The translations under genes were made by a program, and so were the position numbers. Below the pieces are notes generated by a model. The model saw nothing but the letters and a program-made list of their open reading frames with translations, searched no databases and was not told the origin of the DNA. From Edaphobacter aggregans (lineage in GTDB: Bacteria > Acidobacteriota > Terriglobia > Terriglobales > Acidobacteriaceae), in assembly GCF_003945235.1 (NCBI RefSeq), contig NZ_RSDW01000001.1, positions 5,790,001 to 5,822,000 of the forward strand: a DNA stretch of 32,000 nt. The letters are read 5' to 3'. Below, one piece after another: positions 205 to 20,202 of this stretch; position 1 is the first letter of the stretch; every line of letters begins with the position of its first letter.

Positions 205-239
205 CTTCCGAGTCCTGATTTCACAGGCTACCTGCATCA

Positions 240-629: not shown

Positions 630-708
630 ACGTAGGCCTGATGTATTTATCTTCGATCTGGCACAGTTGCAAAAAACACAATATAGGGCGTGCGACGTCT
701 CTCAACAA

Positions 709-724
709 CTGGGGAAATGCCTAG
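709..724 (-). promoter_or_regulatory. Palindromic box copy A (gene-sense CTAGGCATTTCCCCAG, 14/16 to copy G), upstream of the response-regulator gene
   Basis: It abuts -35-like TTGTTG (708-703). A 17-nt spacer follows, then -10 TATATT (685-680). The start codon is at 629. Confidence 0.6.
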
Positions 725-831
725 GTGGATGTTCCTTCCTTAGAAGGCTCGCTACTGTCTAGCCGACATGACGTTCATGGACAAGCTCATTTCACTGCGT
801 TCTCTCCGCGACACGGAAGTGAACAGAGTAC

Positions 832-847
832 CTAGGGTTTTTCCTAG
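832..847 (+). promoter_or_regulatory. Palindromic box copy B (CTAGGGTTTTTCCTAG, 14/16), upstream of the DcaP-like porin/glutaminase genes
   Basis: It abuts TTGTTG (848-853). A 17-nt spacer follows, then TACAAG (871-876). The start codon is at 930. Confidence 0.6.
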
Positions 848-929
848 TTGTTGTCACTAGCCCAAGAGCATACAAGTATCGCAAAGCTAATGGCAGCGAC
901 TTGTAGGACTCCAAGGAGGCACCAGACCT

Positions 930-2429
930 ATGAGATCGAACTTAAAGAATGCTAGGAATAACGCCTCTCTTGTCGCGGTATTATTTCTTTCCGTTATGTG
1001 GGGCCAGCCGGCTAAAGCGCAGTCCCAGGATACCCGGAAGCAGGATATACAGGAGCTCAAGGACAAACTTCAGCAATTGGAACAAATGATGGGGGAGGTG
1101 AAGGGGAAGATCACGGTGCTGGAGGGTCAGCCTGGCACGCAAAACTCAGAGGCCGGCGTTGGAGAGAGCAAGAGCGGGCCGAACGATGCCCTTGTCAGCT
1201 CAGTCGTCAACTCGCTTGATCACTATCCCGGAGCGCATGCTGCTGCAATACCCACAGTTGGCGCTCATGGTGCACAGGCGGACCAAAAGAAACCTGGATC
1301 AGAGAGCACCCTGGATATTTATGGATTCGTCATGATGGATTCCGGTTATGACTTCGGACAATCGGACCCAAGCTGGAATGACGTGTTACGACCAACGAAA
1401 CTCCCATCTTTTCCGAACGAGTTTGGGCCAAACGGACAGGCTTTTTTCAGTGTAAAGCAGACGAGATTTGGAACGAAGACGTCCACTCCGACTTCGTTTG
1501 GCGATCTGAAGACGACATTTGAGTTTGAGCTTTTCGGTACAGGTGTTGATGCAGGGCAGACCACATTCCGGCTTCGTCATGCATGGGGGGAAATGGGTCA
1601 CTTCGGCGCAGGGCAGACCTGGAGCCCGTTTATGGATATCAATGTCTTCCCGAACTCGATCGAATACTGGGGCCCTAACGGAATGGTTTTCTTCCGGAAT
1701 GTGCAGTTTCGGTGGACGCCGATCAAGACAGCGCATAACACATTCATGATTGCAGCAGAGCGTCCTGGAGCAAGCGGGGACCAGGGAGTTTACAGCGGCC
1801 GCATTGAGCTCTCGAACATTACACCTCAGTTCATTCTTCCTGATCTTTCTATGCAGGGCCACTTCGACCGGAAGTGGGGATATTTTCAGATTGCGAGCAT
1901 GTTCCGGAGAATTGCGTGGGTGGACAACAACGCGACGTCCAAGCTCAATTTCAGCGGTTCGGCATTTGGTTGGGGCATTAATGCGAGTTCGAACCTCAAA
2001 TTCAAAGAGAGCACTACGGGAAGGCTCCAACTGGTCTATGGCCATGGCATTCAGAATTATATGAACGACGCACCGATTGACATTGGCGTCCAGAATAACT
2101 TTTCCAACCCGATAACACCTATCAAGGGAGTTCCTCTGCCGATGATTGGCGCGGTTGCGTTTGTTGATCACAACTGGAGCCCAAAGTTCAGCAGCACGTT
2201 TGGAGGATCGATGCTGAATATCTGGAACTCAGATGCTGAGGCGCCGAGCGATTTTCACCAAGGATATTATGCGCTTACGAACCTGCTGTACTACCCGATC
2301 AAAAACGTGATGGCGGGCGGCGAGTTTCAGTATGGCCGGCGAGTGAATTTCCGGAACGGCTACAACTTCAACGACTATCGAGTGCAGTTTTCCTTCAAGT
2401 ATTCGTATGGCAAGACGTTTGCTTTCTGA
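930..2429 (+). CDS. DcaP-like outer-membrane porin with N-terminal coiled coil
   Basis: AAGGAGG sits 7 nt before the ATG. The signal peptide ends at AKA-QS. A heptad-like segment reads QDIQELKDKLQQLEQMMGEVKGKITVLEG. The barrel body follows (LDIYGFVMMDSGYDFGQ...FSVKQTRFG...FEFELFG) and ends ...FSFKYSYGKTFAF with a terminal aromatic residue. Confidence 0.8.
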   Translation: MRSNLKNARNNASLVAVLFLSVMWGQPAKAQSQDTRKQDIQELKDKLQQLEQMMGEVKGKITVLEGQPGTQNSEAGVGESKSGPNDALVSSVVNSLDHYPGAHAAAIPTVGAHGAQADQKKPGSESTLDIYGFVMMDSGYDFGQSDPSWNDVLRPTKLPSFPNEFGPNGQAFFSVKQTRFGTKTSTPTSFGDLKTTFEFELFGTGVDAGQTTFRLRHAWGEMGHFGAGQTWSPFMDINVFPNSIEYWGPNGMVFFRNVQFRWTPIKTAHNTFMIAAERPGASGDQGVYSGRIELSNITPQFILPDLSMQGHFDRKWGYFQIASMFRRIAWVDNNATSKLNFSGSAFGWGINASSNLKFKESTTGRLQLVYGHGIQNYMNDAPIDIGVQNNFSNPITPIKGVPLPMIGAVAFVDHNWSPKFSSTFGGSMLNIWNSDAEAPSDFHQGYYALTNLLYYPIKNVMAGGEFQYGRRVNFRNGYNFNDYRVQFSFKYSYGKTFAF

Positions 2430-2495
2430 GTAGAGGGCTGCGGTGGACCTTGTTCGAAAAATCATAGGTAATCGAGAGCGGAAAGGAGATCCACT

Positions 2496-3554
2496 GTGAA
2501 TGCACGTCGAATTTCTACTTTGGTTTTGATGGCAGCTTCGCTATTTTCCGAATATTCTTGCGCGGTTCCTGCAGTCGCTCAAACCCCAAAGGTCAGCCCG
2601 GTTGCCCCGCGACGGGAGCAGGTTGAGGCGGTCGTCAAAGAAGCCTACGAAAAATTTAGGAACGACACCAACGGAAAAAACGCTGATTACATTCCATATC
2701 TTGCAAAGGTAGATTCGAAGCTATTCGGAATAGCTATCGTCACGACGGACAACCAAGTCCTAACGATGGGAGATGTGAAATACGCGTTCTCCATCCAGTC
2801 GATCTCCAAGGTCTATTCTCTCGCACTCGCAATGGAGGAACTTGGTCCCGACAAGGTCTTTGAAAAAATCGGCTCTGAGCCTACTGGACGCCCCTTCAAT
2901 TCTCCAGTGGCGGTAGTTGATATGCCGACGCACTCGGGCAATCCATTCGTTAACGCAGGTGCCATTGCGACCGTTAGCCTGATCTCAGGCAGCACGGCGG
3001 ATGAGAAATGGAACAAGATTCTGAATTTCTACAGTAAGGCTGCAGGAGAAAAGCTGGTCCTGATTGATGAGGTGTACAAGTCGGAGGCGGCTACGAATAC
3101 GGGTAATAAAGCGCTGTCGTATCTGCTGGCGAAGTATGACCGGATCTATGCGGATCCGTTTGAGTCAGTAGATGTGTATACGAAGCAGTGCTCCGTCGGA
3201 GTGAATGCGACGCAGCTGGCGCGCATGGGTGCGACGTTGGCGAACAACGGAGTGAATCCGGCGACTGGCGAGCGAGTGATCAAAGCCGAGGATATTCCGC
3301 ACATTTTGAGCACGATGATGGTGGCAGGGCTGTATGACGGCTCGGGCACTTGGGCCTGGAACGTGGGTTTGCCGGCGAAGAGCGGCGTTGGCGGGGGGAT
3401 TGTTGCAATTGCTCCGGGGAAGGGCGCAATTGCGGTGTTTGCTCCGCCACTGGATGAGGCGGGAAACAGCGTGAAGGCGCAGGAGGTCATCCGGTACGTT
3501 GCAGAGAGGCTAAATTACAACATCTTTTCCCCGACCTCTGTTGGCTTCAAGTAG
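2496..3554 (+). CDS. glsA: Glutaminase A with Sec signal peptide (predicted periplasmic)
   Basis: The start is GTG with AAGGAG 7 nt upstream. The N-terminus MNARRISTLVLMAASLFSEYSCAVPAVA-QT looks like a signal peptide. The glutaminase core motifs are present: ADYIPYLAKVD, FSIQSISKVYSLALAMEELG, EPTGRPFNS and LPAKSGVGGGIVAI. Confidence 0.9.
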   Translation: MNARRISTLVLMAASLFSEYSCAVPAVAQTPKVSPVAPRREQVEAVVKEAYEKFRNDTNGKNADYIPYLAKVDSKLFGIAIVTTDNQVLTMGDVKYAFSIQSISKVYSLALAMEELGPDKVFEKIGSEPTGRPFNSPVAVVDMPTHSGNPFVNAGAIATVSLISGSTADEKWNKILNFYSKAAGEKLVLIDEVYKSEAATNTGNKALSYLLAKYDRIYADPFESVDVYTKQCSVGVNATQLARMGATLANNGVNPATGERVIKAEDIPHILSTMMVAGLYDGSGTWAWNVGLPAKSGVGGGIVAIAPGKGAIAVFAPPLDEAGNSVKAQEVIRYVAERLNYNIFSPTSVGFK

Positions 3555-3699
3555 TGGGAAAGTGCCTTCGCGGCGATAGATGATTTCGATTGTTTCCCTG
3601 CCGTCGGCGCGTGTGAATGAGGCTATGGGGCGGCGAGCCTGGCGGTTCCGATGTTTGATACGAGTCCGAATACCAACGGCAGCCCGAGATCGGCGATCA

Positions 3700-3798
3700 A
3701 TCCGTTTGACGCATGCGTTAAGGCTCAGGAGGTTATTCGCTATGTCGCCGAAGCCTGAGCTACAACCTCTTCTCTCCGATTTCTGTTGGTTGAAGTAG
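3700..3798 (+). pseudogene. Decayed relic of a second glutaminase 3' end
   Basis: 3713-3798 aligns base-for-base, at roughly three quarters identity by eye, with glsA 3469-3554. VKAQEVIRYVAE is retained, then a premature TGA and a frame change, then LSYNLFSPISVG versus LNYNIFSPTSVGFK. The relic ends with the same ...gaagtag. Weaker similarity may extend back to about 3620. Confidence 0.6.
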
Positions 3799-3845
3799 CT
3801 CAGCGACGAAGTGAATCGCCGTCGCTTACAAGGAGGCGTCATTCA

Positions 3846-5501
3846 ATGACAGCTGGGATCTCCATCTGCAGAGATTTTCGAGAACGTCAGAGATTTCTTG
3901 TTCGCGCTTGCCTATCCGTAAGCCTGTTTTTGGTTGTGCATCCGTGTAACGCCCAATCGTCGACACCCTCGATATTCAATGGCCCCTCCGACGCAATCGA
4001 CGGTGCATCGTCGATTCCCAAAGTCAGCCCTCCCCTGACTGAACGAGAAGAGGAAATGTTGCGGCTCATTCAGAGTCTCCAGGATCGCGTCGCCCGGCTG
4101 GAGGCTGAGAGGGGGACTGATTCGAAGGATATAAACTTTGATACCGAAGTGGAGGCGAAGAAGGCCTCTGCAAATGTTCTAGCGGCGACTGTTGTTGCTG
4201 TACCGCCGACAAGCAGAGATATCGCGAATCCTATCGATGAAGCCGCGAGGTCGCCCGTTGACGGTGTGAAGAGTCTAGGTGGAAGCGCTAGTGGTGGCCA
4301 GGAAGAAAGAAAGTTTTGGAGCCCCTACACACCGAATCTTGGTTTCAAGATAGCCAATACCGAGTACGGAGACGTAAGCCTTAGCATCTATACCTACGCT
4401 CGCTATCTGAACCAACGGGCGATCGAGCCAACATATACAAACGCGTTCGGCGTTACCAGCAATCTCCAACAACGGCAGGATTTTCAACTCAACAAACTAC
4501 AAATAAAGTTTCTCGGCTGGATGATGAGTCCTAAATTCCGTTACTTCCTCTATGCATGGACCTCGAACGCCACACAGGGGCAAGGAGCTCAGGTCGTACT
4601 CGCTGGAAATCTGAATTACAGCTTCAATAAGTACCTCACCGTTGGCGCGGGAGTCTTCTCATTGCCGGGCGCGAGGAGCGTCGAAGGCAACTTTCCGTTC
4701 TGGCTGAGTGTTGATAGTCGACTAATAGCTGACGAGTTCTTTCGCCCCTCATATTCCTCAGGCATTAAGGCCAGTGGAACCATCGCGAAGGGGCTGAGTT
4801 ACCAAGCCATGGTCGCGAATAATCGGAGCACACTGGGTGTCAGCGCAGCCCAGCTTCCCAACCACTTCAATACTATTTCTTCTGTGCTCCTCTGGATGCC
4901 TAAGGGCGATTACGGATTAGGCTGGGGCGACTTTGAACATCATGAATCACCTGTTACTCGTTTTGGCTTCCATTTCAACCATAGTGACGAGAACAAGCAA
5001 AGCCAGCCAAACAGCGATTCATTCGAGAATGTTCAGCTCAGGCTCTCCGATGGCAGCGTAATCTTTACGCCTAATCTCTTCGGGCCAGGCATTACGATCA
5101 CCGATGCAAGATATAAGATGGCCTCCTTCGACGCGGGGATCAAGTATCGCGGCTATGCACTAGAAGGTGAATATTACTGGCAGTGGCTCAATGACTTCCG
5201 TGGCACGAATACTTCAGGGCTGCCAACGGATTATGCCTATGGGTATCAGCTTCAGGGCTCAGCGATGGTCATCCCCAAAGCGCTTCAGATCTATGCGGGA
5301 GGATCGGAGATCATTGGCCAGTTCGGCCGCCCGTGGGACTTTCGTGCGGGCACAAACTACTTCCCGTTCAAGAACAAGGTCGTGCGATGGAACTCCGAGT
5401 TCCTCTACTTGTACAGATCCCCTGTCGGCTACACATCCGTTCCTTTTCCACTGGGAGGCACCGGACCGATCTTTCATACAACTCTGGAGCTAGCTTTCTG
5501 A
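3846..5501 (+). CDS. Outer-membrane beta-barrel (porin-like) with N-terminal coiled coil; paralog of 20203-21771
   Basis: I prefer the ATG at 3846 (AAGGAGG 9 nt upstream) over the ORF-track start at 3786, which lies inside the glutaminase relic. The signal peptide ends at CNA-QSS. The coiled-coil segment reads EREEEMLRLIQSLQDRVARLEAE. The protein ends ...FHTTLELAF. It is about 60 percent identical by eye to the 20203-21771 product. Confidence 0.75.
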   Translation: MTAGISICRDFRERQRFLVRACLSVSLFLVVHPCNAQSSTPSIFNGPSDAIDGASSIPKVSPPLTEREEEMLRLIQSLQDRVARLEAERGTDSKDINFDTEVEAKKASANVLAATVVAVPPTSRDIANPIDEAARSPVDGVKSLGGSASGGQEERKFWSPYTPNLGFKIANTEYGDVSLSIYTYARYLNQRAIEPTYTNAFGVTSNLQQRQDFQLNKLQIKFLGWMMSPKFRYFLYAWTSNATQGQGAQVVLAGNLNYSFNKYLTVGAGVFSLPGARSVEGNFPFWLSVDSRLIADEFFRPSYSSGIKASGTIAKGLSYQAMVANNRSTLGVSAAQLPNHFNTISSVLLWMPKGDYGLGWGDFEHHESPVTRFGFHFNHSDENKQSQPNSDSFENVQLRLSDGSVIFTPNLFGPGITITDARYKMASFDAGIKYRGYALEGEYYWQWLNDFRGTNTSGLPTDYAYGYQLQGSAMVIPKALQIYAGGSEIIGQFGRPWDFRAGTNYFPFKNKVVRWNSEFLYLYRSPVGYTSVPFPLGGTGPIFHTTLELAF

Positions 5502-5562
5502 AATGTAGGGCTAGTCGACTGACGATGTAAATGAATCAACGACGAATGAAAAAGGAGGCTCT

Positions 5563-6657
5563 GTGAAACGCACTTCGGACAATCTGCTTCATAGGCTCGT
5601 TTTTGGCTTATGTCTATGTGTGTCGCTGTGTTCTACATCTGGAACTGCACAGACTAATCCTCCTAATCAATTTGAGCTGAACGATTCGCACTTTCATCTT
5701 ACGAACTACGTTCAAGAAGGCACTGATATACATGAATTCCTGAAGATTATGGGCACAAAGGTCGGGCGCGTCGCGCTGTTCGGAATTCCTCTTCAGCAGC
5801 AGTGGTCTTATCTGAACTCCGGCGATACTGCGCCCACGTATTACCTACAGACCGACTCGCCTCTCTACTACTACTCATTTACCGATGCGAATATCGCAAT
5901 GACATATCGGTCACTCTCCAAGGAAGATCAGGCGCGCTTCGAACCCATGATCACAGGCTTCAACCCGACCGACATGTATGCGGCTGATCACATTCGTCGC
6001 GTCCTGCAGACTTTTCCAGGAGTCTTTTCGGGAATTGGAGAGTTCACGATTCATAAAGAGTTTGTTTCCTCCAAGATCCCAGGAGAAACTGCCAATCTTC
6101 AGAACCGCGCTCTCGACAGGATTCTGGACTTTGCCGGCGAGGTCGGGCTCGTTGTCATAATCCACAGCGACATGGACGTGCCGTTCCCTAAGGAAGGTGC
6201 GCCGCCCGCATATCTTGATCAAATGAAGGCGCTCCTTAAACGGCATCCTAATACCACAATCATTTGGGCACATACCGGCTTAGGCCGAGTGGTTCGTCCT
6301 ATCAAGGATCACGCTGCCAATCTAGCGTTGATCCTAAGCGATCCTGCATTCAAACATGTCTATTTCGATATCTCATGGGACGAAGTAGCTAAGTACGTCG
6401 TCGCAACTCCTGAATCTACCCAGACTAGTGCCGACCTCATCAATCGTTTCCCGGATCGCTTTCTGTTCGGCACTGACGAGGTCGCACCTTCCAGCCAGGA
6501 GTCTTACTTGAAGGTCTTCTATCAATACGGTCCTCTTTGGAAGTTGCTTACACCGGAAGCAAGCGAGAAGGTCCGTAAAGGAAACTTCGCGCGTCTTTTC
6601 GACGAAGCACGACCCAAAGTAAGAGCGTGGGAAAGCACCCACGCTAGCGGAAAATAG
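5563..6657 (+). CDS. Exported metal-dependent amidohydrolase (Amidohydro_2/TIM-barrel type)
   Basis: The start is GTG with AAAGGAGG upstream. The signal peptide ends at GTA-QT. Metal-ligand-like motifs are DSHFHL, VVIIHSDMD, IIWAHTG and LFGTDE. Confidence 0.8.
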   Translation: MKRTSDNLLHRLVFGLCLCVSLCSTSGTAQTNPPNQFELNDSHFHLTNYVQEGTDIHEFLKIMGTKVGRVALFGIPLQQQWSYLNSGDTAPTYYLQTDSPLYYYSFTDANIAMTYRSLSKEDQARFEPMITGFNPTDMYAADHIRRVLQTFPGVFSGIGEFTIHKEFVSSKIPGETANLQNRALDRILDFAGEVGLVVIIHSDMDVPFPKEGAPPAYLDQMKALLKRHPNTTIIWAHTGLGRVVRPIKDHAANLALILSDPAFKHVYFDISWDEVAKYVVATPESTQTSADLINRFPDRFLFGTDEVAPSSQESYLKVFYQYGPLWKLLTPEASEKVRKGNFARLFDEARPKVRAWESTHASGK

Positions 6658-6681
6658 ATTTAGAACGATTGTGCGATTGTT

Positions 6682-7650
6682 CTAAAAAGAAACCGCGGCC
6701 GAGATCTGCAGCGAGTATCCCTGCAGAGTTGACCTATTCGAGAATTCTCGAAAATACTTGAGGCCCAGGCTCACCTTTCGCGCTGGCAGCATTACGTTTG
6801 AAGCGAATCCAAGGGAGTTGACCCGATAGTGTGCCTTCGCCTGATCCGGTGTGATCGTTGGCCCACTCTTATCAGTCGTCTGCCACTGTTGGTAGCCCAC
6901 TAACCCCAGTTGTAGACGCAAATCACTTTTCAACGGAACGGTGTGCATTAGCGAATAGTCGAGATTAAGGGCTTGCCCCGGATGAATTCCAGTGCCTTCT
7001 TGAACACCGTGGAATTCATACAACTCGAACGCGGAAATTGAGGTCGCTTTGTTGTCGGTTAGATAAAAGGATTCGCCCCCCGCAACGCAATGAGTCCAGT
7101 AGCCCGAACCAACATTGCTGTTGGAACTGGCATCGAATCTGCCGGTAGGCGCTAGGAACCCGTAGATAGCACGAGCGTCAACACGTTTTGTCTTCCAGCC
7201 GAGAATAAAGGGTTGGTAGTAAGAGTCTGCAAATCCGCCTCCGCCGCTGATAGCCCCCTGAGCATTGGAAGTTAGCGAGTTGTTGGCGATGGGCAGCGTG
7301 GCCACAAAGGAGTAGACAGGGCTGCCCAACATCCCTATCTTCTTTTTGCTGACCCAGACGAAACTGTTCATGTCCATCAATACCGAATTTTGCCCGGTAG
7401 CAACGACTTCGCCGTTGGCACCCTTCAAATGGTCGCGTGAGTAAAACAGAAAGGCGTTTGAGTAGGTAAATCCTGGCTCCGGTGTAACCCCAGAGTTGGT
7501 GGCGGTCATCCCCAGGGGGTAGACACCCCTGACCTGAGCTTTACCGGGTGCAATCATCGTCCAGATGGTCATGACCAGACAAAATACGGCAAATGACGAA
7601 GGCACACAGTCTTTACTTACGACCTCAGACTCCTTTCCGCCCAGATTCAT
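6682..7650 (-). CDS. Outer-membrane channel of the MetA-pathway (Phenol_MetA_deg-like) transporter family
   Basis: The hydrophobic leader ends at GKA-QV. The sequence shows an alternating beta-strand pattern with GGGFADSYYQPFILGWK and GSGYWTH. The protein ends ...LQISAAVSF. It is the last gene of the DyP operon. Confidence 0.7.
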   Translation of the reverse strand: MNLGGKESEVVSKDCVPSSFAVFCLVMTIWTMIAPGKAQVRGVYPLGMTATNSGVTPEPGFTYSNAFLFYSRDHLKGANGEVVATGQNSVLMDMNSFVWVSKKKIGMLGSPVYSFVATLPIANNSLTSNAQGAISGGGGFADSYYQPFILGWKTKRVDARAIYGFLAPTGRFDASSNSNVGSGYWTHCVAGGESFYLTDNKATSISAFELYEFHGVQEGTGIHPGQALNLDYSLMHTVPLKSDLRLQLGLVGYQQWQTTDKSGPTITPDQAKAHYRVNSLGFASNVMLPARKVSLGLKYFREFSNRSTLQGYSLQISAAVSF

Positions 7651-7772
7651 CTGTGCATGCCCTCAAGACTGTGTAGGTTGCTGGCTGGTCCTTTGCTCCC
7701 CGCTGCGCTTCGCTAGCCAACGTGCAAAGGGGAAGAGGAGAACGAGGCCAACGATCGCAATCACAACGACCA

Positions 7773-8531: not shown

Positions 8532-8600
8532 GAACCTTCACCTAATTCGAATCTCATCTCGATGCTTCAGAGTCGGTGATGGTGTTCCTACGACAGGCAT

Positions 8601-9632: not shown

Positions 9633-9653
9633 CTCAATCCCTTTCTCCAGGAT

Positions 9654-10994
9654 TCATGCAGAACGGGCCTGGCTCCTATCTGAGAGTGCCGCAAGGTATC
9701 GCAGCGCCCTGATACCCGGCAGGAAGAAGTAAGCTCCCCCTCGCAAGGTCGTAAAAGACGGCAGGCCTGTGATCTTCCTCCGAATGGGTCGTTTTGGGAT
9801 GGTCATGTCAAAGCTTCCATCCTGTGTGCCAAAAATCGGATCGCGTTCGTTACCTAGCTCGTGAAAATTGGGATCGTTCACCCATACGTTCATCGCAAAC
9901 TCAAACTGTCGCACGAGACTCGCGCAACCGATGAACGCCGCAATCCCCCGTTCTATCCCATCCTCAGGCTTGCCCTCCGGCAACGGCGGACCGTACGTCC
10001 CCCCCCGCCGAATCATCCTTCTCCGCTGCATGTTTGCCGCCGTATCTCGCGGGTTCATGCGCCGAATATGCGAGCCGAGCGGACACCCATAGCCGTACGG
10101 GTCCATCTTGGCGTAGTTGAAATCGTTCGTGCGCTTCATGTCTCCGCCGAGCTCCGGGTCGTCTTTGTCAGGCGTCAGCACCAGCGGAGCGCCGCTGCGC
10201 CATCGGCCCATCAGCTTCGCGGCAATCCATTCCTGCTGCTCCGGTGTCGCGCCGTTTTGCCGCAGAAAATCGCGAAAGGCCCCAACGTGTTCCTCGAGCC
10301 TGAGGTACGCGAGATAGCTGCCGTTGTGCGAAAGAATCTCCGGTTGCGGCAGCCCGGCAGGCGGTCCGTTTTCATCCGGATAACCGAGAAAAAATTCTCC
10401 GGCATTAATCGGAGGGCCAGAGCCGGGAGTTGGTTCACCATCAATTCCCTTGATGTAGGGCTGCGACAGGCGATCGCGATACCCAAAGTGCTCATGTGCG
10501 TATGTAAAAGGAGGAATCGCTTCCAGATCGAGCGACGACAAAACCTTCACTCTATCGCATTGGAGAAGGTGTTCCCGATGCTCCTGCCTGCATCGTTCGC
10601 GCTCGGCGACATCTCGGGCGAACAAGACAACAATGGCATGAAGATCAGGACTCGCTAGCCCTCCCACCCAGTGCTTTGGATCGTTGTCGCCCGTAGCGCC
10701 GACGATCTCCGCACGGGCAGCCATACCTTGACGAAACTCCTCAGGAAATGTGGCAAGAGACGTTTCATCAACCCCAAGAGCTCGCAAGCCGTTCCAGGTA
10801 AAGGCCACACTCACCCACCTGGTGTACGAGTCATTGGATTCGATAGCTTTTGCAGTGCCGACTTTTTCTAGAATCCCGTTGAGCCACTCGCGCGCTCCGG
10901 CATTCTGTCGAAACGTTAGAAATTCATATCTCGCTGCAAGAGCGTGTGGTCGCGAAATCAGGAAGTGCTGAATGTCTTCGATTTCAAGCCTCAT
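9654..10994 (-). CDS. DyP-type (dye-decolorizing) heme peroxidase, cytoplasmic
   Basis: GAGGAGGG precedes the ATG. The N-terminus is DIQHFLI... The GXXDG-like motif is EHFGYRDRLSQP, with the Asp retained. The proximal-His context is PLGSHIRRMNPRD. MIRRGGTYG is also present. There is no Tat/Sec signal. Confidence 0.9.
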   Translation of the reverse strand: MRLEIEDIQHFLISRPHALAARYEFLTFRQNAGAREWLNGILEKVGTAKAIESNDSYTRWVSVAFTWNGLRALGVDETSLATFPEEFRQGMAARAEIVGATGDNDPKHWVGGLASPDLHAIVVLFARDVAERERCRQEHREHLLQCDRVKVLSSLDLEAIPPFTYAHEHFGYRDRLSQPYIKGIDGEPTPGSGPPINAGEFFLGYPDENGPPAGLPQPEILSHNGSYLAYLRLEEHVGAFRDFLRQNGATPEQQEWIAAKLMGRWRSGAPLVLTPDKDDPELGGDMKRTNDFNYAKMDPYGYGCPLGSHIRRMNPRDTAANMQRRRMIRRGGTYGPPLPEGKPEDGIERGIAAFIGCASLVRQFEFAMNVWVNDPNFHELGNERDPIFGTQDGSFDMTIPKRPIRRKITGLPSFTTLRGGAYFFLPGIRALRYLAALSDRSQARSA

Positions 10995-11067
10995 GTGCCC
11001 TCCTCAAATCACATCTCGAGGTTGCGAGCTAGGAGAAAAACAACATTCATGCACCAGAAGAGTGCCG

Positions 11068-11646
11068 CTACTGCATCAGGTCGAGCATTCCGGAAAAGGT
11101 CGCCTTGAGTTTCAGTGCCTTCTTGATCTCATCTGCGGAGACATACGGATACTCTCCGTATTCCAGAAAGCTCGGGCGTTGGTGTTCACGAACGAACCGA
11201 ACGAATGCCGGAGTATTTGTCTTCCAGTCCTCTGGAAATCCTTCGAGGTTTTCAAAGACAGTGTTCAAGCCATATTGGGAGAACAACGCTACTGCGTCTT
11301 CGGTGTACTTATCAAAATCGGTGTCGAAGATTCCTTGATACATGAAATATGTATCGTTCCCAATGTCGAAGAGAACCCATCGCAGGTAATGAAGTTTGAG
11401 CGTTGCAAGTGCTTCCGGCAACCCTGCGATTGTCTTCTCGATTGTCTTGCCATATTCGCGGATAACATCCTCTCGCCCAGGCTTGATCTTCGCAATGATC
11501 GTGAATCCATAACAGGCCGGTGTTCGAGGATAGAGCGGTCCGTATCTTCCATTTTGGAGTGTGAAATACCCCTCTTTTGGAATGGCCATCGCTTGGGGTT
11601 TGGTTGGATCAATTTCCTTTTCGGGTGCGACTGCTGGAGTTGCCAT
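11068..11646 (-). CDS. Hypothetical protein (192 aa), first gene of the DyP operon
   Basis: I prefer the ATG at 11646 (GGGAGGAG 6 nt upstream) over the ORF-track start at 11667. The sequence is soluble-like: GFTIIAKIKPGREDVIREYG, LHYLRWVLFD, GIFDTDFDKYTEDA. I do not recognise a family. An alpha+beta-barrel-like fold is a guess. Confidence 0.75.
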   Translation of the reverse strand: MATPAVAPEKEIDPTKPQAMAIPKEGYFTLQNGRYGPLYPRTPACYGFTIIAKIKPGREDVIREYGKTIEKTIAGLPEALATLKLHYLRWVLFDIGNDTYFMYQGIFDTDFDKYTEDAVALFSQYGLNTVFENLEGFPEDWKTNTPAFVRFVREHQRPSFLEYGEYPYVSADEIKKALKLKATFSGMLDLMQ

Positions 11647-11713
11647 ATCATCTCCTCCCAAGATCACAGGCTGCGATAGACAGAAGGCTATGCGGAGCCA
11701 ACGAAGACCGAAA

Positions 11714-11729
11714 CTAGGAAAATCCCCAG
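11714..11729 (-). promoter_or_regulatory. Palindromic box copy C (gene-sense CTGGGGATTTTCCTAG, 14/16), upstream of the DyP operon
   Basis: It abuts TTTCGG (11713-11708). A 17-nt spacer follows, then TAGCCT (11690-11685). The start codon is at 11646. Confidence 0.55.
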
Positions 11730-11769
11730 TGAGCCTCTTGGTTGCACCATCTGCAAATCCTAATCTTTT

Positions 11770-12768
11770 TTAGTCGTCTTCCACTGGAGTCCAGGTTTTA
11801 TCCGGATTGAAGCGTTCCATCTTCTTGAATTCATCGAGCGTAGACGGCCCTAAATCCTTTTCGTACACAACGCCGTCGTTGTTCACGATGAACGTTTTCA
11901 CTCCGGTGACGCGGTACTCGGCAGGGGAAGCTATAAGGGCGAAGCCACCGATCATCGCGCCCTTAATCACATAGTCCAACTCCCCCACCGGTGTGGCTGC
12001 GGGACCCTGACCCTTTAGCACTTTGAAGAAGTAGCCATGATAAGGCTCCGCTTTGCTGGTATAGCCCTGTGTAATTGCCTCCGCAATCTCTTCACTGAAG
12101 GGACCGCCTAAGGTGCCGTCTGCGTTTCGCCACGACAGACCATCCTGTTTGCCAGGGGTGCTAATAATACGTTGGGCGTATTGATTCACGTCGTAGCCTT
12201 CGCGCTTTTGCAAAGCGTATTCCTTCTGCGCCTCTACGTACTCATGAGAGATGTTGATGGCATCGAGTTCATTGGAGCCGATGCGGCGATTCAAGATCTC
12301 CTGCCTGCCCGCGTTGCTGTCGAAAAACCATCGATTGCTCCTCTTGACGATCGGTACCGGGAACGGCCAGTCCTCGTTGCCTACAAGGAGATAGGCCCAT
12401 AATCCGTTCTTCGGTTCAACGGAAACTTTCGTCTTTTCGCGGGCCTCCGCCGCGAACTCAGCGGCACGTTGCCGGTCCTGCACGACATCTCCGGTGAACG
12501 CAATGTCGTGGCCATCTGGGCCAAAAATCTGCGCAAGTGCAGTCTCGTCAAATTGGTCGGCTGCACGGACCAGCGCATCAGCAGCCTGCTGGGAGGTATC
12601 AAAGGTTTTTGTCCCTGCCGGAATACCTCTTGTAGGCGCCGAAGCCGAAGCCGTTATTGCTGACTGCTGAGCGACGGAAAGTATCGGCACGAACAAACAT
12701 GCCAAAGCCACGACGCTCAGAACCCAGGCACATAGGGAGACATTTCTATTCGTAGACGTTGGTTTCAT
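11770..12768 (-). CDS. DUF2950 family exported protein
   Basis: I prefer the ATG at 12768 (AGAGGAG 7 nt upstream). The signal peptide ends at SVA-QQ. The C-terminal signature is YHGYFFKVLKGQGPAA...DYVIKGAMIGGFALIASPAEYRVTGVKTFIVNNDGVVYEKDLG. Confidence 0.85.
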   Translation of the reverse strand: MKPTSTNRNVSLCAWVLSVVALACLFVPILSVAQQSAITASASAPTRGIPAGTKTFDTSQQAADALVRAADQFDETALAQIFGPDGHDIAFTGDVVQDRQRAAEFAAEAREKTKVSVEPKNGLWAYLLVGNEDWPFPVPIVKRSNRWFFDSNAGRQEILNRRIGSNELDAINISHEYVEAQKEYALQKREGYDVNQYAQRIISTPGKQDGLSWRNADGTLGGPFSEEIAEAITQGYTSKAEPYHGYFFKVLKGQGPAATPVGELDYVIKGAMIGGFALIASPAEYRVTGVKTFIVNNDGVVYEKDLGPSTLDEFKKMERFNPDKTWTPVEDD

Positions 12769-12797
12769 TGCAGCGCTCCTCTGTTCGCCTTCCATGC

Positions 12798-14294
12798 CTA
12801 CCTCCGCCGTCCACCGCCACGGGCGCCGCCGCCACCTCGAGATCCCATACTTCGAGATCCCATGCTGGAGGCGCCCCGGTTGCTGCTGGCGCGTGCGCTT
12901 GATCCGCTGAACCCTCCAGATCCACCTCCAAATGCACCCCGGTTTCCACCGCCGCTGCCCCGCGAAAGATCCCGACTTCCTGCACTGGTTCCGCCTCCGC
13001 CAAGTCCTCCGCCACGCGCGCCTCCGCCAGTTCCTCCCCCTCGATCGCCTCCCCCAAGTCCTCCGGATCGATTGCCCAGACCGCCTCCTGCCTCTCGATT
13101 GCTGGCTAAATTGCCGCCCTCTCGGCCAATCTGCTGCCTTGCGCTCGCTTGACGATTAGCCAGCGAGTCGCCCCGAGCCGAACCGCCAAATCGATCCGCC
13201 GTTCCACGATCCCCATAGGGAGCGCCACCGCGATGTTCCGGGTTATGCTGCCACTTGTTGCCTGCATTGCCACCTGCAGGCAGTTGCGACGGCCGGTTGC
13301 CAGCGCCACCAACACCTCCAACTCCACCGGCGCCACCAACACCTCCTACTCCGCCAGCGCCACCTACGCCACCGGGACGACCAGCACCACCTACGCCGCC
13401 TGCACCACCGACACCTCCAACTCCTCCGGCACCACCCCGAGAGGGTAGTTGGGAAGGTCGGTTGCCGCCGCCAATGTTCGTGTTGCGATTGAAATTATTG
13501 TTGCGGTTGATCGTGATGTCGTTGTTACCACCCCAGCCGCACCCCCAGCCCCAACCGCCACCCCAGAATGCGCCCATCGCTATACCAACGCCGAAAGAGA
13601 TCGCCATCCCCGCGGCATAGTAACCGGGAGGCGGATAGTAAATAGGAGGGTAAGGATACACCGGTGGTCCATACACTACTACTGGATTGTAAGAAGGAAC
13701 GTACACCACTTGAGGATTCGCCTGCTCGATGACGATCGTGCTCTTGCTTTCGATGACCTTGGTCTCTACTTTTTGCTGTTCACTCGACTTCAGATTGCCG
13801 GTTCCCTGGGCCTTCTTACGCATTCGCTGGACTGCATCCATCACATCGCTTTGCTGTGCGAGAAACGCGTTGCCGAGATCCGTCGTCCACTGGATATCGT
13901 CCGCCAGGCGCTTGACTAGGTCAGGCAGTCCGGCCAGAGCCTGGACGCTTGGATCCCATGTCTGCTTGGCCACAGCATCGGCGAGGGCTTTATCTTTCAG
14001 CCCCGGATTTTTCGCAAGCCACTGTTGGAGTTGAATAATCTCAAGCGGATACGTGGAGGCGGCAAGGGTTTGGGCCAACATCGGATCTGGAAAAAGCGCA
14101 ATCGGTGCAACCAGTGAATCCAATTGGTCCGAAGGAATCTTGGTAGCCGGTGCAGGCGATGTCGTCGATGCCGCCTGTGGCGGAGAAGGGGACTGCAACT
14201 CCGCCACTGTGTCACCTGGCACGATAACGATGGCGCAGAGGACTACCGTCAAACGTCGAAGTCCTGCTGCGAATGTTTCAGTCTTCGGATTCAT
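12798..14294 (-). CDS. DUF3300 family exported protein with a long Gly/Arg/Ser-rich C-terminal low-complexity region
   Basis: GGAGGGA precedes the ATG. The DUF3300 core reads LDSLVAPIALFPDPMLAQTLAASTYPLEIIQLQQWL...WDPSVQALAGLPDLVKRLADDIQWTTDLGNAFLAQQSDVMDAVQRMRKKAQ. A Pro/Tyr-rich segment follows, then GWGWGCGWGG, then about 250 aa of G/R/S-rich sequence ending GGGRRR. Confidence 0.85.
   Translation of the reverse strand: MNPKTETFAAGLRRLTVVLCAIVIVPGDTVAELQSPSPPQAASTTSPAPATKIPSDQLDSLVAPIALFPDPMLAQTLAASTYPLEIIQLQQWLAKNPGLKDKALADAVAKQTWDPSVQALAGLPDLVKRLADDIQWTTDLGNAFLAQQSDVMDAVQRMRKKAQGTGNLKSSEQQKVETKVIESKSTIVIEQANPQVVYVPSYNPVVVYGPPVYPYPPIYYPPPGYYAAGMAISFGVGIAMGAFWGGGWGWGCGWGGNNDITINRNNNFNRNTNIGGGNRPSQLPSRGGAGGVGGVGGAGGVGGAGRPGGVGGAGGVGGVGGAGGVGGVGGAGNRPSQLPAGGNAGNKWQHNPEHRGGAPYGDRGTADRFGGSARGDSLANRQASARQQIGREGGNLASNREAGGGLGNRSGGLGGGDRGGGTGGGARGGGLGGGGTSAGSRDLSRGSGGGNRGAFGGGSGGFSGSSARASSNRGASSMGSRSMGSRGGGGARGGGRRR
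13303..13436 (-). repeat. In-frame 9-nt periodic repeat encoding (GGA/GGV)n inside the DUF3300 gene
   Basis: The + strand reads ccaccaacacctccaactccaccggcgccacc... in repeated units. On the coding strand this gives GGAGGVGGVGGAGGVGGAGRPGGVGGAGGVGGVGGAGGVGGVGGAG. Confidence 0.7.
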
Positions 14295-14375
14295 GGGTAA
14301 CTTCCCTCCGTCTTAACAATCTTTCGGGAATCCCTTGAGGTCCCTCAGAGCGTGTCCATCTTCCGCTTGGCTCGC

Positions 14376-14406
14376 GTCGCAATTCCGCTCGTCACGGAAT
14401 CGCAAC
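14376..14406 (-). other. Imperfect 12-bp-arm hairpin in the predicted 5' leader of the DUF3300-DUF2950 operon
   Basis: The + strand reads gtcgcaattccg-ctcgtca-cggaatcgcaac. Ten of 12 arm positions pair and the loop is 7 nt. It lies between the predicted -10 (14422-14427) and the start codon (14294). Confidence 0.35.
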
Positions 14407-14450
14407 TTTGTGATTCTCAGGAGCCTACCTCAGGACGAAGAGAACCGATA

Positions 14451-14466
14451 CTAGGGAAAACCCTTA
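14451..14466 (-). promoter_or_regulatory. Palindromic box copy D (gene-sense TAAGGGTTTTCCCTAG, 13/16), upstream of DUF3300-DUF2950
   Basis: It abuts TATCGG (14450-14445). A 17-nt spacer follows, then TAGGCT (14427-14422). The start codon is at 14294. A weaker look-alike, CAAGGGATTCCCGAA, with one central base fewer, lies at about 14323-14337 in the leader. Confidence 0.5.
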
Positions 14467-14588
14467 TACGCAGCAGAGGTCTGTATCAGGGTCCGATCCG
14501 GTGCAGCCAGCGACGGGAAAACTTGTTATATGGCAAGATCGCGATGGCAGTTGGTCAGTTTGTCTGGCTCGGCAATACTCCACTGTGC

Positions 14589-15785
14589 TCAGAAAATAAT
14601 TTTGATAGCCCGGGACAACAGTTCTTCTAGCGGCATGATAGTCAGGAGCAAAGGCAGGAGTGGTGCAGCCGTCGTTGCGGCGAGCCGGAAGACGTCATCC
14701 AGAGAAAAGGGCACGAAACGCATCTCCCGTACGAACCCAAAGCTGTTGCCGAGGTCAGCTAAGGATTGGATGTCGCCGCTTCCGAGCAATTCATCGCCGT
14801 GAGCGTCGCTTTTCTGGTTGCCGGTAGGCAGCCACTTGTCTTCAAATTCACTGACGTAACTGGACGCGAGCGTCCCGTATTCTCCAAGACCCCGGCGCTT
14901 CGCGGCGCTCAATTGTGGGGTAAATACCACAAGCGGACCAAGAATGAATACGACAAAGACAGCGACGAAGGCGACGATGTTAAGTTTATAAGACAGCAGA
15001 TTATGGCCCTGATAGAGGATGCGGTTAGCGATAAGTCCCGCCAGCACTACACCCTGCGCGAACAGGATCGGAGCGAACGCGTAGGAGCCCACACCCAGAA
15101 AGCCAAGGCCGCCCGCGCGGTCTGGATGGGCAGGCAATAAATGCAGGTCGAACTTTGAAATCCGCCACAGGAATTGGAACCAGATGAAAGTTCGTATATA
15201 CCAGCGCAGTAAGATGAATTGAAAGATCGGCAAACTGACAAAGGCGTACCAATATCCCGGCAGCGTCAACCCCAGGTGAACTCCCTCTGGCGTGCGATAC
15301 CAACTCGCCGTTTCCAGAGAAGTCTGGCTGCGCCAAAACCATTGCCCGACCGTATAGATGAAAACTAGCAGGGCAAGTTCGAGAGCGAGTGAGTTGCGGA
15401 GGCGCGTAGCAGCTTCGATAGCATTGTGGAATTTTGGGGTGTCCCGTGGTCTGACAATGCCGCGCTCGATGAAGCGTTTTACCGTGATCCGCAAGCGTCG
15501 ATGGATAATGAGTTCGGCTCCGATAAGCACTGGAACTGCGATGAGGAATCGGACATGGGCCTCAATATCGTGGAGGAAGGTGAGCTTCACGCCGGATGGA
15601 TTCCCCGCAATTAAGGTCAACAGAGCCAAGGGCAACCAGGTGATCAGTGCAAAGAACAGAACACGGCGCGGCAACAGTTCGAGTGCCGGTCCCTCTAGAC
15701 GAGCCCGTCGCAGGAACTGATATAACGGCCCACCGAGAACTAGAGAGAAATCGGGCTCTTCCTGAAGAGGTGATTGTATGATCAT
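14589..15785 (-). CDS. Polytopic inner-membrane protein of unknown function (398 aa from ATG 15785)
   Basis: There are at least six hydrophobic helices, for example VLFFALITWLPLALLTLIAG, FLIAVPVLIGAELII, GYWYAFVSLPIFQFILL and IVAFVAVFVVFILGPLVVF. The C-terminal domain is soluble. I recognise no family. The ORF-track start at 15815 is TTG and directly touches box E, so the ATG at 15785 is more plausible. Confidence 0.75.
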   Translation of the reverse strand: MIIQSPLQEEPDFSLVLGGPLYQFLRRARLEGPALELLPRRVLFFALITWLPLALLTLIAGNPSGVKLTFLHDIEAHVRFLIAVPVLIGAELIIHRRLRITVKRFIERGIVRPRDTPKFHNAIEAATRLRNSLALELALLVFIYTVGQWFWRSQTSLETASWYRTPEGVHLGLTLPGYWYAFVSLPIFQFILLRWYIRTFIWFQFLWRISKFDLHLLPAHPDRAGGLGFLGVGSYAFAPILFAQGVVLAGLIANRILYQGHNLLSYKLNIVAFVAVFVVFILGPLVVFTPQLSAAKRRGLGEYGTLASSYVSEFEDKWLPTGNQKSDAHGDELLGSGDIQSLADLGNSFGFVREMRFVPFSLDDVFRLAATTAAPLLPLLLTIMPLEELLSRAIKIIF

Positions 15786-15815
15786 GAGCTTTGTCCTTTC
15801 AGTGCGCACGGACAA

Positions 15816-15831
15816 TTAGGAAAATCCCTAA
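15816..15831 (-). promoter_or_regulatory. Palindromic box copy E (gene-sense TTAGGGATTTTCCTAA, 13/16), upstream of the membrane-protein gene
   Basis: It abuts TTGTCC (15815-15810). A 17-nt spacer leads to AAAGCT (15792-15787), only 1 nt before the ATG at 15785. Confidence 0.5.
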
Positions 15832-15899
15832 CAGGTTCGAAATGTCGTAGCTGCGCTAAAGGAACGAGCAGGCAAGTTATGTCAAAGACTAAAGACACG

Positions 15900-16808
15900 T
15901 CACTGAATTCCAGCGATACCCTTGTTCTGAAGAATCCGCACCACGACGCGACGATTCTCGGCTTCCGAATCATTCGCATTGCCCGAGTCCACTTGCCGGC
16001 TCTCGCCCATCGCGCCGGGAGCCAGCATTCTCGAAAGTGGGACATGGCCCTCCTGCTGGAGGTAGGTAGCCACAGCATTGGCGCGGTCTTCGCTTAGTTT
16101 CTGGTTCAGTGCGGCGCTGCCGGACGAGGAGGCGTAGCCTTTCACCTGGATCACGTAGCCGTTCACGGTCTCGGCCTTTTGCGCCAAGGCCAATAGGGGG
16201 GCATTGTATTGTGGGTCTAGCTTAACCTTGCCGTTTCCGAAGTAGACTGTTACCTCATCGTAGATGTAGTAATCGTCGAGTTGGCCGAAGCGTGCGGTAT
16301 TGGCGGCGATTAAAGCCTTGTGCTCGGCCAGCTTTTTCTGCTGTTCCGTCAACTGTGCCTGTTGTTCTTTTAATGCCGCGTTCTGCTCCTCCAGCTCCTT
16401 TTGGTTGGCAGCCGCTTGCTGGGCTGTTTCATGCACGCCGGCACTAATAGCCTGGGCTTGTTCGAAATCGTTGCCTTTGAATCGAATGGTGTTCGCCACG
16501 AGTTGGTTCTGAGCGTCATAGCTCCCCTCTACCCGAATCGGAAGACCGGGGATCAGAGCCGCCATCGACATTTTCTTGTTGCGCGCCTTGAGCGCACCTT
16601 GTAGTTGACCAACATCGGTGCTCTCGGTTAGAAGAACGACCACTTTGGGTGAGTTAGATGTCTGCAGCTCGAGGGTGTCACCGCTGCGCGCTTTTATGAT
16701 GCCTTCAACCTTCGTGTTCTGGGCGTAGACTGCACTGCTTAGGACCGCCAATCCCATAAGCAACAGGGCTGATACGGATACGATTCTGCGTGATTTGCCT
16801 TGCGTCAT
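15900..16808 (-). CDS. OmpA-family protein: exported N-terminal domain, coiled coil, C-terminal OmpA-like peptidoglycan-binding domain
   Basis: I prefer the ATG at 16808 (GGAGAG 5 nt upstream). The signal peptide ends at VYA-QN. The coiled-coil segment is QKELEEQNAALKEQQAQLTEQQKKLAEHKA. The OmpA-like C-terminus reads VQVKGYASSSGSAALNQKLSEDRANAVATYL...NRRVVVRIL. Confidence 0.85.
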   Translation of the reverse strand: MTQGKSRRIVSVSALLLMGLAVLSSAVYAQNTKVEGIIKARSGDTLELQTSNSPKVVVLLTESTDVGQLQGALKARNKKMSMAALIPGLPIRVEGSYDAQNQLVANTIRFKGNDFEQAQAISAGVHETAQQAAANQKELEEQNAALKEQQAQLTEQQKKLAEHKALIAANTARFGQLDDYYIYDEVTVYFGNGKVKLDPQYNAPLLALAQKAETVNGYVIQVKGYASSSGSAALNQKLSEDRANAVATYLQQEGHVPLSRMLAPGAMGESRQVDSGNANDSEAENRRVVVRILQNKGIAGIQ

Positions 16809-16921
16809 AGCATCTCTCCAATCGGCCGCGTTTAACATGCGACCTGGTCTTCTCATCATCGTGTTGATTCTGAAAACCCTGCTGCACACTGTATGTTTAG
16901 GGGATCGTCTGAGATTAGCAA

Positions 16922-16937
16922 CTAGGGAAATCCCTAA
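16922..16937 (-). promoter_or_regulatory. Palindromic box copy F (gene-sense TTAGGGATTTCCCTAG, 15/16), upstream of the OmpA-family gene
   Basis: It abuts TTGCTA (16921-16916). A 17-nt spacer follows, then AAACAT (16898-16893). The start codon is at 16808. Confidence 0.6.
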
Positions 16938-17083
16938 AGCGCGAGGATCAAGATGAATCGTAACTGATCCCGTCGCCCGTTCCTGTTGTCTGATTGCGAC
17001 TTAGTTGATCGGCAGATACGTATGCTGACCATCACCCGCTTGTTACGCGAAATTCTACTCACAGCACGCGTAACGCTCGGACG

Positions 17084-17099
17084 CTAGGGATTTCCCTAG
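17084..17099 (+). promoter_or_regulatory. Palindromic box copy G (CTAGGGATTTCCCTAG, perfect 7-bp arms), upstream of DUF4136-DUF481
   Basis: It abuts TTGTAG (17100-17105). A 17-nt spacer follows, then TAGAAA (17123-17128). The start codon is at 17256. Confidence 0.6.
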
Positions 17100-17255
17100 T
17101 TGTAGCTCTGGACTGTTTACTTTAGAAAAACAATTGAGAATTTACTGCTCCGACTGCGAGACAGAAAAGCCTGCGGTAGCTTGATTAGACCCAACCGCAG
17201 CCACGAGAGACGCGATGGGTCGCTAATTACTGCAATCGAGAGAGGAGAACAGCGA

Positions 17256-17816: not shown

Positions 17817-17952
17817 AGTGTTTCAGGCAAGGAATGTCCAGGACTTATTCGTTTCGTTGCGGTCGCATTCAGCTGATGGATCATTGGCATACCGCGGGAA
17901 TGCGCAGATGGGCCTGTATGGAGCGATGGTGGGAATGTTTCTACTCAACGCT

Positions 17953-20156: not shown

Positions 20157-20202
20157 GTCTGCTTAGATGCGGAGATCAGTCAACTCATCATGGTCTACCT
20201 CC

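Follow-up and report, generated by a model that had tools for sequence, protein, structure and literature searches.

NarL recognizes heptamers of the consensus TACYYMT, and the motifs of CRP and FNR are TGTGA-N6-TCACA and TTGAT-N4-ATCAA, respectively. At the yeaR promoter, a NarL site of two heptamers separated by 2 bp (7-2-7) lies just upstream of the -35 element, is centred at -43.5 and acts through the C-terminal domain of the RNA polymerase alpha subunit (alpha-CTD), not through sigma region 4 (PMC10853779). In the cryo-electron microscopy structure of the NarL complex, the dimer contacts alpha-CTD, which occupies the minor groove in the middle of the dyad, flanked by the two monomers; the ogt promoter has NarL sites at -44.5 and -77.5, and for CRP/FNR the sites have their centre at -41.5, overlapping the -35 element (PMC10853779). 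The lux box is centred at -42.5 (PMC3376562), and the RcsB box reads TN(G/A)GAN4TC(T/C)NA, with GGG variants reducing RcsB binding (PMC7913699). Here we describe a 16-bp inverted repeat, the box, that stands directly 5' of the -35 element of promoters in Edaphobacter aggregans (Acidobacteriota, Acidobacteriaceae). It was studied in a 32,000-nt stretch of contig NZ_RSDW01000001.1 (positions 5,790,001 to 5,822,000 of the forward strand; hereafter the window, with coordinates counted from its first base) and in related genomes and soil metagenomes. The box is probably the site of an autoregulated dimeric activator of the NarL/FixJ family (GerE/LuxR-type helix-turn-helix), encoded by a neighbouring two-component operon of the Acidobacteriaceae.

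A scan of both strands of the window for the 16-mer CTAGGGAAATCCCTAG, allowing up to three mismatches, returned nine strand-matches representing seven sites, against 0.14 expected; 0 of 100 shuffled controls reached nine, and the scan gave no additional box in the part of the window past 17.1 kb. Read in gene orientation, the seven sites take the form YTAGGGATTTYCCTAG. Column counts over 38 promoters (described below) give a 16-bp inverted repeat in 7-2-7 arrangement, YTAGGGA-TT-TCCCTAG, and with the start of the -35 element included the pattern can also be written YTAGGGWTTTYCCTAG+TTG. A first-pass annotation had placed seven boxes and fourteen promoter hexamers in the window, and re-reading the sequence returned every one of them at exactly those coordinates. 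When the seven regions were aligned, the invariant positions were limited to box columns and the T directly 3' of the box, the flanks being unrelated. A larger repeat or mobile element behind the seven sites was considered and rejected, as the flanks share no similarity. The boxes and the promoters drawn next to them are as follows.

Box A, 709-724, minus strand: CTAGGCATTTCCCCAG in gene orientation, 5' of the stand-alone receiver gene, with a box at the same position in loci L010 and L011.
Promoter A, 680-708, minus strand: TTGTTG (708-703), 17-nt spacer, TATATT (685-680), predicted start at ~673-671.
Box B, 832-847, plus strand: CTAGGGTTTTTCCTAG, 5' of the porin operon and kept 5' of ~29 porin orthologues.
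Promoter B, 848-876, plus strand: TTGTTG (848-853), 17-nt spacer, TACAAG (871-876), predicted start at ~883-885.
Box C, 11714-11729, minus strand: CTGGGGATTTTCCTAG, with an orthologous promoter in L011.
Promoter C, 11685-11713, minus strand: TTTCGG (11713-11708), 17-nt spacer, TAGCCT (11690-11685), predicted start at ~11678-11676.
Box D, 14451-14466, minus strand: TAAGGGTTTTCCCTAG.
Promoter D, 14422-14450, minus strand: TATCGG (14450-14445), 17-nt spacer, TAGGCT (14427-14422).
Box E, 15816-15831, minus strand: TTAGGGATTTTCCTAA.
Promoter E, doubtful, 15787-15815, minus strand: TTGTCC (15815-15810), AAAGCT (15792-15787).
Box F, 16922-16937, minus strand: TTAGGGATTTCCCTAG.
Promoter F, 16893-16921, minus strand: TTGCTA (16921-16916), 17-nt spacer, AAACAT (16898-16893), where orthologous promoters have TAGATA or TAGAAA.
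Box G, 17084-17099, plus strand: CTAGGGATTTCCCTAG, a perfect consensus match.
Promoter G, 17100-17128, plus strand: TTGTAG (17100-17105), 17-nt spacer, TAGAAA (17123-17128), predicted start at ~17135-17137.

The box holds a fixed register relative to both promoter elements. At the window sites, the first base 3' of the box is T in 7/7, the second T in 6/7 and the third G in 5/7, and position 2 of the proposed -10 hexamer is A in 7/7; the proposed -10 hexamers of E and F (AAAGCT and AAACAT) are poor. The adjacency of box and -35 element extends to related genomes: in a set of 38 promoters drawn from Acidobacteriaceae genomes and the window, with promoter flanks clustered against orthologous redundancy, the three bases 3' of the box are T in 36, T in 31 and G in 32. 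Counting from the first of these bases, the same promoters have T at +24 (27/38) and A at +25 (30/38), the 17 intervening bases carry no information, and a purine occupies +37 in 33/38. Purine enrichment over +37 to +39, the expected start-site zone, is also found in a metagenome set, for which soil metagenomes were scanned with TAGGGATTTCCCTAGTTG, a pattern covering box and TTG only. The scan gave at least 120 loci and, among the matches listed, to which all counts from this set refer, 98 non-redundant promoters. These have T at +24 in 78, A at +25 in 77, C at +23 in 64 and T at +4 in 65, and a TA begins after a spacer of 17 nt in 70, of 18 nt in 13 and of 16 nt in 3. Because TA at spacer 17 occurs in 70/98 promoters against a background frequency of 3%, the fixed 17-nt spacer proposed in the first-pass annotation is a real conserved property. 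The site thus lies directly 5' of the -35 element in a register fixed relative to the -10 element, box E excepted. The box-to-TA distance is constant among orthologues and the distance from box to start codon varies. Moving the -10 element by one base (AAGAAT-type, spacer 18) was tried and rejected, spacer 17 prevailing by 70 to 13.

The centre of the palindrome is polar. The claim that the central TT always faces the gene holds at 7/7 window sites and gives way to a strong tendency, not a law, when all sites are taken together. With the arms scanned blind to orientation, boxes of the genome loci with central TT had TTG on the right in 35 cases and on the left in 1, and those with central AA had it on the left in 22 (+1) and on the right in 4; extra boxes of the metagenome loci, lying outside the search-pattern selection, were concordant in 28 cases and discordant in 5. 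The pooled ratio is 85 to 10 (~89% of informative sites, p = 6e-16), or 33 to 4 by cluster (p = 1e-6). Box centres in the genome loci are TT/AA in 106/138 and AT/TA in 22, and an oriented T-tract is therefore favoured over plain A+T richness. Discordant sites in L006, L007, L008 and L031 (~12.2-12.4 kb) have GAATTC-type centres with TTG+17+TAAGGT on the non-predicted side and are conserved exceptions.

The core promoter elements are weak, as the first-pass annotation had it. A generic sigma-70 scan of bases 1-20000 gave 12 promoter-like matches against 12.5 expected, which is chance level, and recovered 0/7 of the proposed hexamer pairs, the single nearby match, at A, falling on shifted hexamers. 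Compared with the sigma-70 elements TTGACA (-35) and TATAAT (-10), ~17 nt apart, only TTG, TA and a weak A/G-rich body are conserved. Such elements fit a housekeeping promoter that would depend on an activator. Because the repeat abuts the -35 element and is followed by the 17-nt spacer and a -10 element at -12 to -7, the box would span -51 to -36 and its dyad centre would lie at ~-43.5; if transcription starts at the purine peak, 1-2 bases further on, the centre would be at -44.5 or -45.5. The earlier placing of the dyad near -43/-44 agrees with the standard -10-to-start distance, and the idea of an activator next to the -35 element is supported. The analogy then drawn, to class II sites of CRP/FNR, is not: NarL/FixJ regulators are the closer match, because the yeaR NarL site lies at -43.5 just upstream of the -35 element, whereas sites of CRP/FNR, with a centre at -41.5, overlap it. 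The rigid register, the weak core hexamers and a dyad near -43.5 together suggest an activator contacting RNA polymerase, not an operator.

Box E is the exception among the seven, the one site at which the promoter as drawn could not be upheld. It precedes the following gene.

Gene E, 14589-15785, minus strand: 398-aa membrane protein, no Pfam family.

From the N-terminus onwards its protein can be aligned with an L110 orthologue (58% identity), which places the ATG at 15785, 1 nt past the proposed -10 hexamer (15792-15787). Promoter E is unworkable as drawn, because the coding sequence would already have begun at a start site 6-9 nt past the hexamer. In front of the L110 orthologue the arrangement is canonical, box+TTGCTC+17+TAGGGT, with a leader of ~65 nt; the window copy (15783-15831) seems to have lost its promoter leader, and box E is possibly a relic. 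Read-through from promoter F may serve gene E, which would then be co-transcribed with the OmpA-like gene. For that OmpA-family gene the start is likely ATGATG at 16859, because GTG 16889 precedes the predicted transcription start.

The boxes are conserved beyond the window. Orthologues of the porin behind box B were found at 49 genome loci, mostly in metagenome-assembled genomes of Acidobacteriaceae/Terriglobales, and ~29/49 carry a box in the same orientation ~100-130 nt 5' of the porin gene, including loci at 55-59% protein identity; among the 49, the box is absent from the porin loci of Blastocatellia, Pyrinomonadaceae and non-Acidobacteria. All seven window gene families recur behind boxes in other loci. 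As a control on open reading frames (ORFs), an ORF of at least 100 aa starts downstream of 68/79 boxes and upstream of 42/79, a moderate discrimination, with many boxes lying in divergent intergenic regions. The porin promoters of L004-L008, L020, L031, L033 and L047 (~9830-9905) have two abutting boxes, CTAGGGATTTCCCTAG and TTAGGGAATCTCCTAG, directly before TTG. L008, L020 and L031 carry a third box ~39 nt further 5' of the tandem boxes, a multi-dimer look that recalls the two NarL sites at ogt. Tandem and triple boxes in some orthologous porin promoters would fit cooperative binding of several dimers. At 832-857, box B and the adjoining TTGTTGTCAC were called as a terminator-like hairpin by a consensus scanner, an artefact of the palindrome.

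A two-component system accompanies the boxes. The receiver gene behind box A encodes no DNA-binding domain, and none was found 3' of it in three frames; the stand-alone receiver of the window was therefore rejected as the box-binding protein. On a JGI metagenome contig with the same porin protein, the gene list places a 223-aa Response_reg+GerE regulator to the left of the receiver, together with an unannotated 481-aa protein that is cut by the contig end and presumed to be the kinase. The order in L011, a close relative, is box, receiver, small ORF, 614-aa kinase and 233-aa Response_reg+GerE regulator, the kinase having HisKA_3 and HATPase_c domains and an ABC_sub_bind-like periplasmic domain. 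The L017 group is more distant, and there one box belongs to the regulator gene and another to a receiver gene. The regulators form two clades at 42% identity, and in both the regulator genes themselves have kept boxes. Of the genome loci with a box, 23 also encode a regulator orthologue, against 0/~20 of those lacking a box. Among the motif-selected loci (120 among the matches listed), 25 encode a full-length regulator, 19 the kinase, 27 the receiver and 41 any of the three; a receiver or regulator is the first gene after the box in 17/104 cases (genome set) and 5/87 (metagenome set), among the commonest first genes. Operon structure, synteny and enrichment thus link a cognate Response_reg+GerE regulator and HisKA_3 kinase to the sites. 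The closest solved relatives of the regulator are VraR, NarL and RcsB (NarL, E = 2e-20), and its recognition helix, TV(E/A)FHK, is not that of NarL or of RcsB. This pattern is as expected of an autoregulated two-component system whose regulator is predicted to bind the box. Stand-alone receiver orthologues (27 metagenome loci) are ~130-150 aa long with canonical Asp/Thr/Lys, stand first in or beside the two-component operon and could act as a phosphate sink or connector. Paralogous Response_reg+GerE pairs occur within single loci in L105 (8806-10329) and L022 (4150-4803 and 15233-15916).

The nearest described arrangement is that of NarL at yeaR, termed 'non-canonical class II' activation. Shared features are a 16-bp repeat of two heptamers with a 2-bp gap, its position directly 5' of the -35 element and, here predicted, a centre at -43.5; NarL binds as a dimeric response regulator of the NarL/FixJ family, and the candidate regulator is its sequence relative. 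In contrast, the heptamers CTAGGGA/TCCCTAG depart from TACYYMT, with the G-rich and C-rich arms swapped, and the recognition helix, the organism, the binding-protein-like periplasmic sensor and a regulon unrelated to nitrate respiration all differ; a strictly polar TT centre is no described feature of NarL sites. CRP/FNR class II promoters likewise have a dimeric activator beside the -35 element of a weak promoter, but their motif and protein family are different, the box abuts TTG without overlap so that neither consensus nor position agrees, and no regulator of the CRP/FNR family is linked to the boxes. In Escherichia coli, EvgS/EvgA pairs a NarL-family regulator with a kinase bearing periplasmic binding-protein-like sensor domains and governs amino-acid-dependent acid resistance. 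The analogy is functional only: the type of binding-protein domain, the non-hybrid HisKA_3 kinase and the DNA site differ, and the acid link here is drawn from regulon content.

RcsB belongs to the same regulator family. Its box is likewise a 14-bp pseudo-palindrome of 5-N4-5 layout, in which T, G and G of the left half and C, C and A of the right half agree in position with those of the present box, and envelope and outer-membrane genes are prominent in its regulon, too (PMC7913699). However, RcsB requires A at position 5 and T at position 10, and TAGGG-ATTT-CCCTA, with G and C there, does not match. RcsB boxes occupy many positions, including the inside of genes, whereas the boxes here keep one register, and there is no RcsC/D/F-type phosphorelay. 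LuxR and TraR bind inverted repeats near -42.5 as GerE-type helix-turn-helix dimers, beside or overlapping a weak -35 element (PMC3376562), but the lux box is 20 bp long and overlaps the -35 element, and these regulators sense acyl-homoserine lactones and are not phosphorylated.

Building on the observed motif, register, polarity, conservation and two-component linkage, we infer the following scheme, in which binding by the regulator, activation, the start sites and the signal are all predicted. A conserved operon with its own box would provide three proteins: the stand-alone receiver, the Response_reg+GerE regulator and a HisKA_3 kinase whose sensor resembles a periplasmic binding protein; here this operon would lie just beyond the left end of the window, with box A driving its first gene. 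Once phosphorylated, the regulator would bind the 7-2-7 repeat YTAGGGA-TT-TCCCTAG, which is flush against a weak -35 element (TTGnnn) followed by 17 nt and a weak -10 element (TAnnnn). From ~-43.5 it would recruit RNA polymerase, as NarL does from the yeaR site. The polar centre (ATTT on the sense strand) may, speculatively, be a minor-groove feature that polymerase reads one way, an idea suggested because alpha-CTD docks between the two monomers at that spot in the NarL complex. The regulon would consist of outer-membrane and envelope proteins and of ammonia-releasing, proton-consuming amino-acid enzymes, which would fit acid or pH homeostasis.

Several observations weigh against this scheme. 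The -10 element reads CTARRa, with C at -13 (+23) in 64/98 and the final T in 42/98 (among the matches listed, L051-L170), and this -13 C and weak final T are atypical for E. coli sigma-70; these promoters may be read by the housekeeping sigma factor of Acidobacteria or by another one. Box E cannot drive its own gene as drawn, and ~10% of sites violate the polarity rule. The regulator gene is outside the window, its placement resting on the gene list of the porin-sharing contig and on orthologous loci, and the linkage of boxes to two-component genes in the genome set is partly confounded by porin synteny, which the motif-selected metagenome set lessens but does not remove.

A first alternative is an activator other than the linked regulator, encoded elsewhere, the neighbouring two-component system being a mere member of the regulon. 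Binding by the linked regulator is a prediction, its helix TV(E/A)FHK is unlike those of NarL and RcsB, making specificity unpredictable, and two-component genes can be targets of other regulators. Yet the 16-bp 7-2-7 / 5-N4-5 layout is typical of GerE-domain dimers, two-component genes are over-represented beside the boxes (the 41/120 above), two regulator clades as far apart as 42% identity each keep boxes on their own genes, and no other DNA-binding protein recurs in the loci, a TetR gene appearing once, in L011; a separate factor is accordingly unlikely. A site touching the -35 element could also block polymerase, and repression from RcsB-type boxes close to a promoter is known, as at gadA, where the box is 5' of the -10 element (PMC2887963), so that the same regulator or another dimeric protein might use the box as an operator. 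But the box never overlaps the -35 or -10 element and keeps a zero-gap register in more than 100 unrelated promoters, whereas operator positions usually vary; weak core elements and a promoter-polar centre are hallmarks of contact between protein and polymerase, and the identical geometry activates at yeaR. Repression from the box is, in our judgement, distinctly improbable.

The atypical -10 element, with its CTA start, purine-rich body and weak final T, might instead mark box, TTG and TA together as the promoter of an alternative sigma factor that needs no separate activator. This is very unlikely, as a perfect 16-bp dyad is no sigma recognition element, TTG-N20-TA with a 17-nt spacer is standard housekeeping geometry, and tandem or triple boxes before a single TTG/TA suit a multimerizing factor, not sigma. 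Chance, a selfish palindrome of the REP or MITE (miniature inverted-repeat transposable element) kind, or a hairpin terminator, each devoid of regulatory role, would agree with the palindromic form and with the flagging of box B by the terminator scan, but the flanks lack similarity, a hairpin of 7-bp stem and 2-nt loop would not be viable, and the sites are always intergenic, 5' of genes and facing them. They are also kept 5' of orthologues at ~55% protein identity, where neutral DNA would be randomized, and such explanations are effectively refuted.

Predicted box-driven units span nearly all of bases 1-19000 of the window. Apart from gene E, they comprise the following.

Stand-alone receiver, 240-629, minus strand: 129 aa, NarL-type receiver, no DNA-binding domain; first gene of the two-component operon.
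Probable operon B, 930-6657, plus strand: DcaP-like porin (930-2429); glutaminase (2496-3554); 571-aa protein, no assigned function (3786-5501); Amidohydro_2 protein (5563-6657).
Probable operon C, 6682-11646, minus strand: ~192-aa protein (ATG 11646, GGGAGGAG before it); DyP-type peroxidase (9654-10994); 343-aa protein; SBF transporter (7773-8531); MetA-like outer-membrane protein (6682-7650).
Operon D, 11770-14294, minus strand: DUF3300 protein (12798-14294); DUF2950 protein (11770-12795).
Gene F, 15900-16859, minus strand: OmpA-family protein.
Operon G, 17181-19008, plus strand: DUF4136 lipoprotein-like protein (17181-17816); DUF481 outer-membrane protein (17818-19008).

In the motif-selected set, among the matches listed, the first gene after the box most commonly encodes a DUF3300 protein (9), followed by Lyase_1 proteins of the fumarase/aspartase type, OmpA proteins and receivers (5 each), beta-carbonic anhydrase, sortase and porin (4 each), Orn/Lys/Arg decarboxylase (2-3), and ATP synthase subunit a and serine dehydratase (2 each). 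In one box-driven operon (L131:842-10807), genes for an Orn/Lys/Arg decarboxylase (946 aa) and a class I/II aminotransferase-like protein of 566 aa, possibly an aspartate 4-decarboxylase, are followed by those for an Asp-Al_Ex exchanger (with TrkA_C), a DcaP porin and a DASS transporter. Such decarboxylase/antiporter combinations are typical of proton-consuming systems; a further box operon combines Lyase_1 with DcuA. Judged from regulon content alone, the ammonia-releasing and proton-consuming amino-acid enzymes, carbonic anhydrase, ATP synthase and envelope proteins may represent an acid or pH response. Alternative roles are the uptake and catabolism of acidic amino acids and dicarboxylates, or a general envelope stress response. 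The box-free remainder of the window (19000-32000) encodes an MPAB_Lcp_cat protein (PF09995, rubber-oxygenase-type catalytic domain), QueF, a PMT_2 glycosyltransferase, a beta-lactamase-fold protein, an MFS transporter, a DUF899 protein, a GT2 glycosyltransferase and the 3' part of IspG/GcpE; its G+C content reaches 0.58-0.63, and GC skew is strongly negative past ~26 kb.

Literature on the exact motif, on Acidobacteria regulators and on acid stress yielded no earlier description, and the box regulon appears previously undescribed; the type of mechanism itself is ordinary and textbook-style. Transcriptional regulation in Acidobacteria is almost uncharted, although the phylum is among the most abundant in soil and its distribution tracks pH. 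The present analysis provides a defined cis-element set in a precise promoter architecture, names a candidate regulator and sensor, and predicts a regulon of several dozen operon types from genomes and metagenomes, whose content suggests envelope remodelling together with amino-acid-dependent proton consumption and ammonia release. The -43.5 geometry of NarL would thereby extend to a distant phylum, the unusual detail being the conserved polarity at the centre of the palindrome. A bolder proposal, which we put forward tentatively and regard as possible though doubtful, joins two ideas: that the T-tract is a directional dock for alpha-CTD between the monomers, making the box a composite element, and that the regulon is the master acid/pH-homeostasis response of the Acidobacteriaceae. 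Its members could include glutaminase, Orn/Lys/Arg decarboxylase, the putative aspartate decarboxylase with the Asp:Ala exchanger, aspartase with DcuA, serine dehydratase, carbonic anhydrase, ATP synthase, porins and envelope proteins, and the kinase with the periplasmic binding-protein-like domain would be the sensor. If the composite element is real, docking at the T-tract would explain the polarity of a palindromic site; if the regulon is a master pH response, it would offer a molecular handle on why the phylum follows soil pH.

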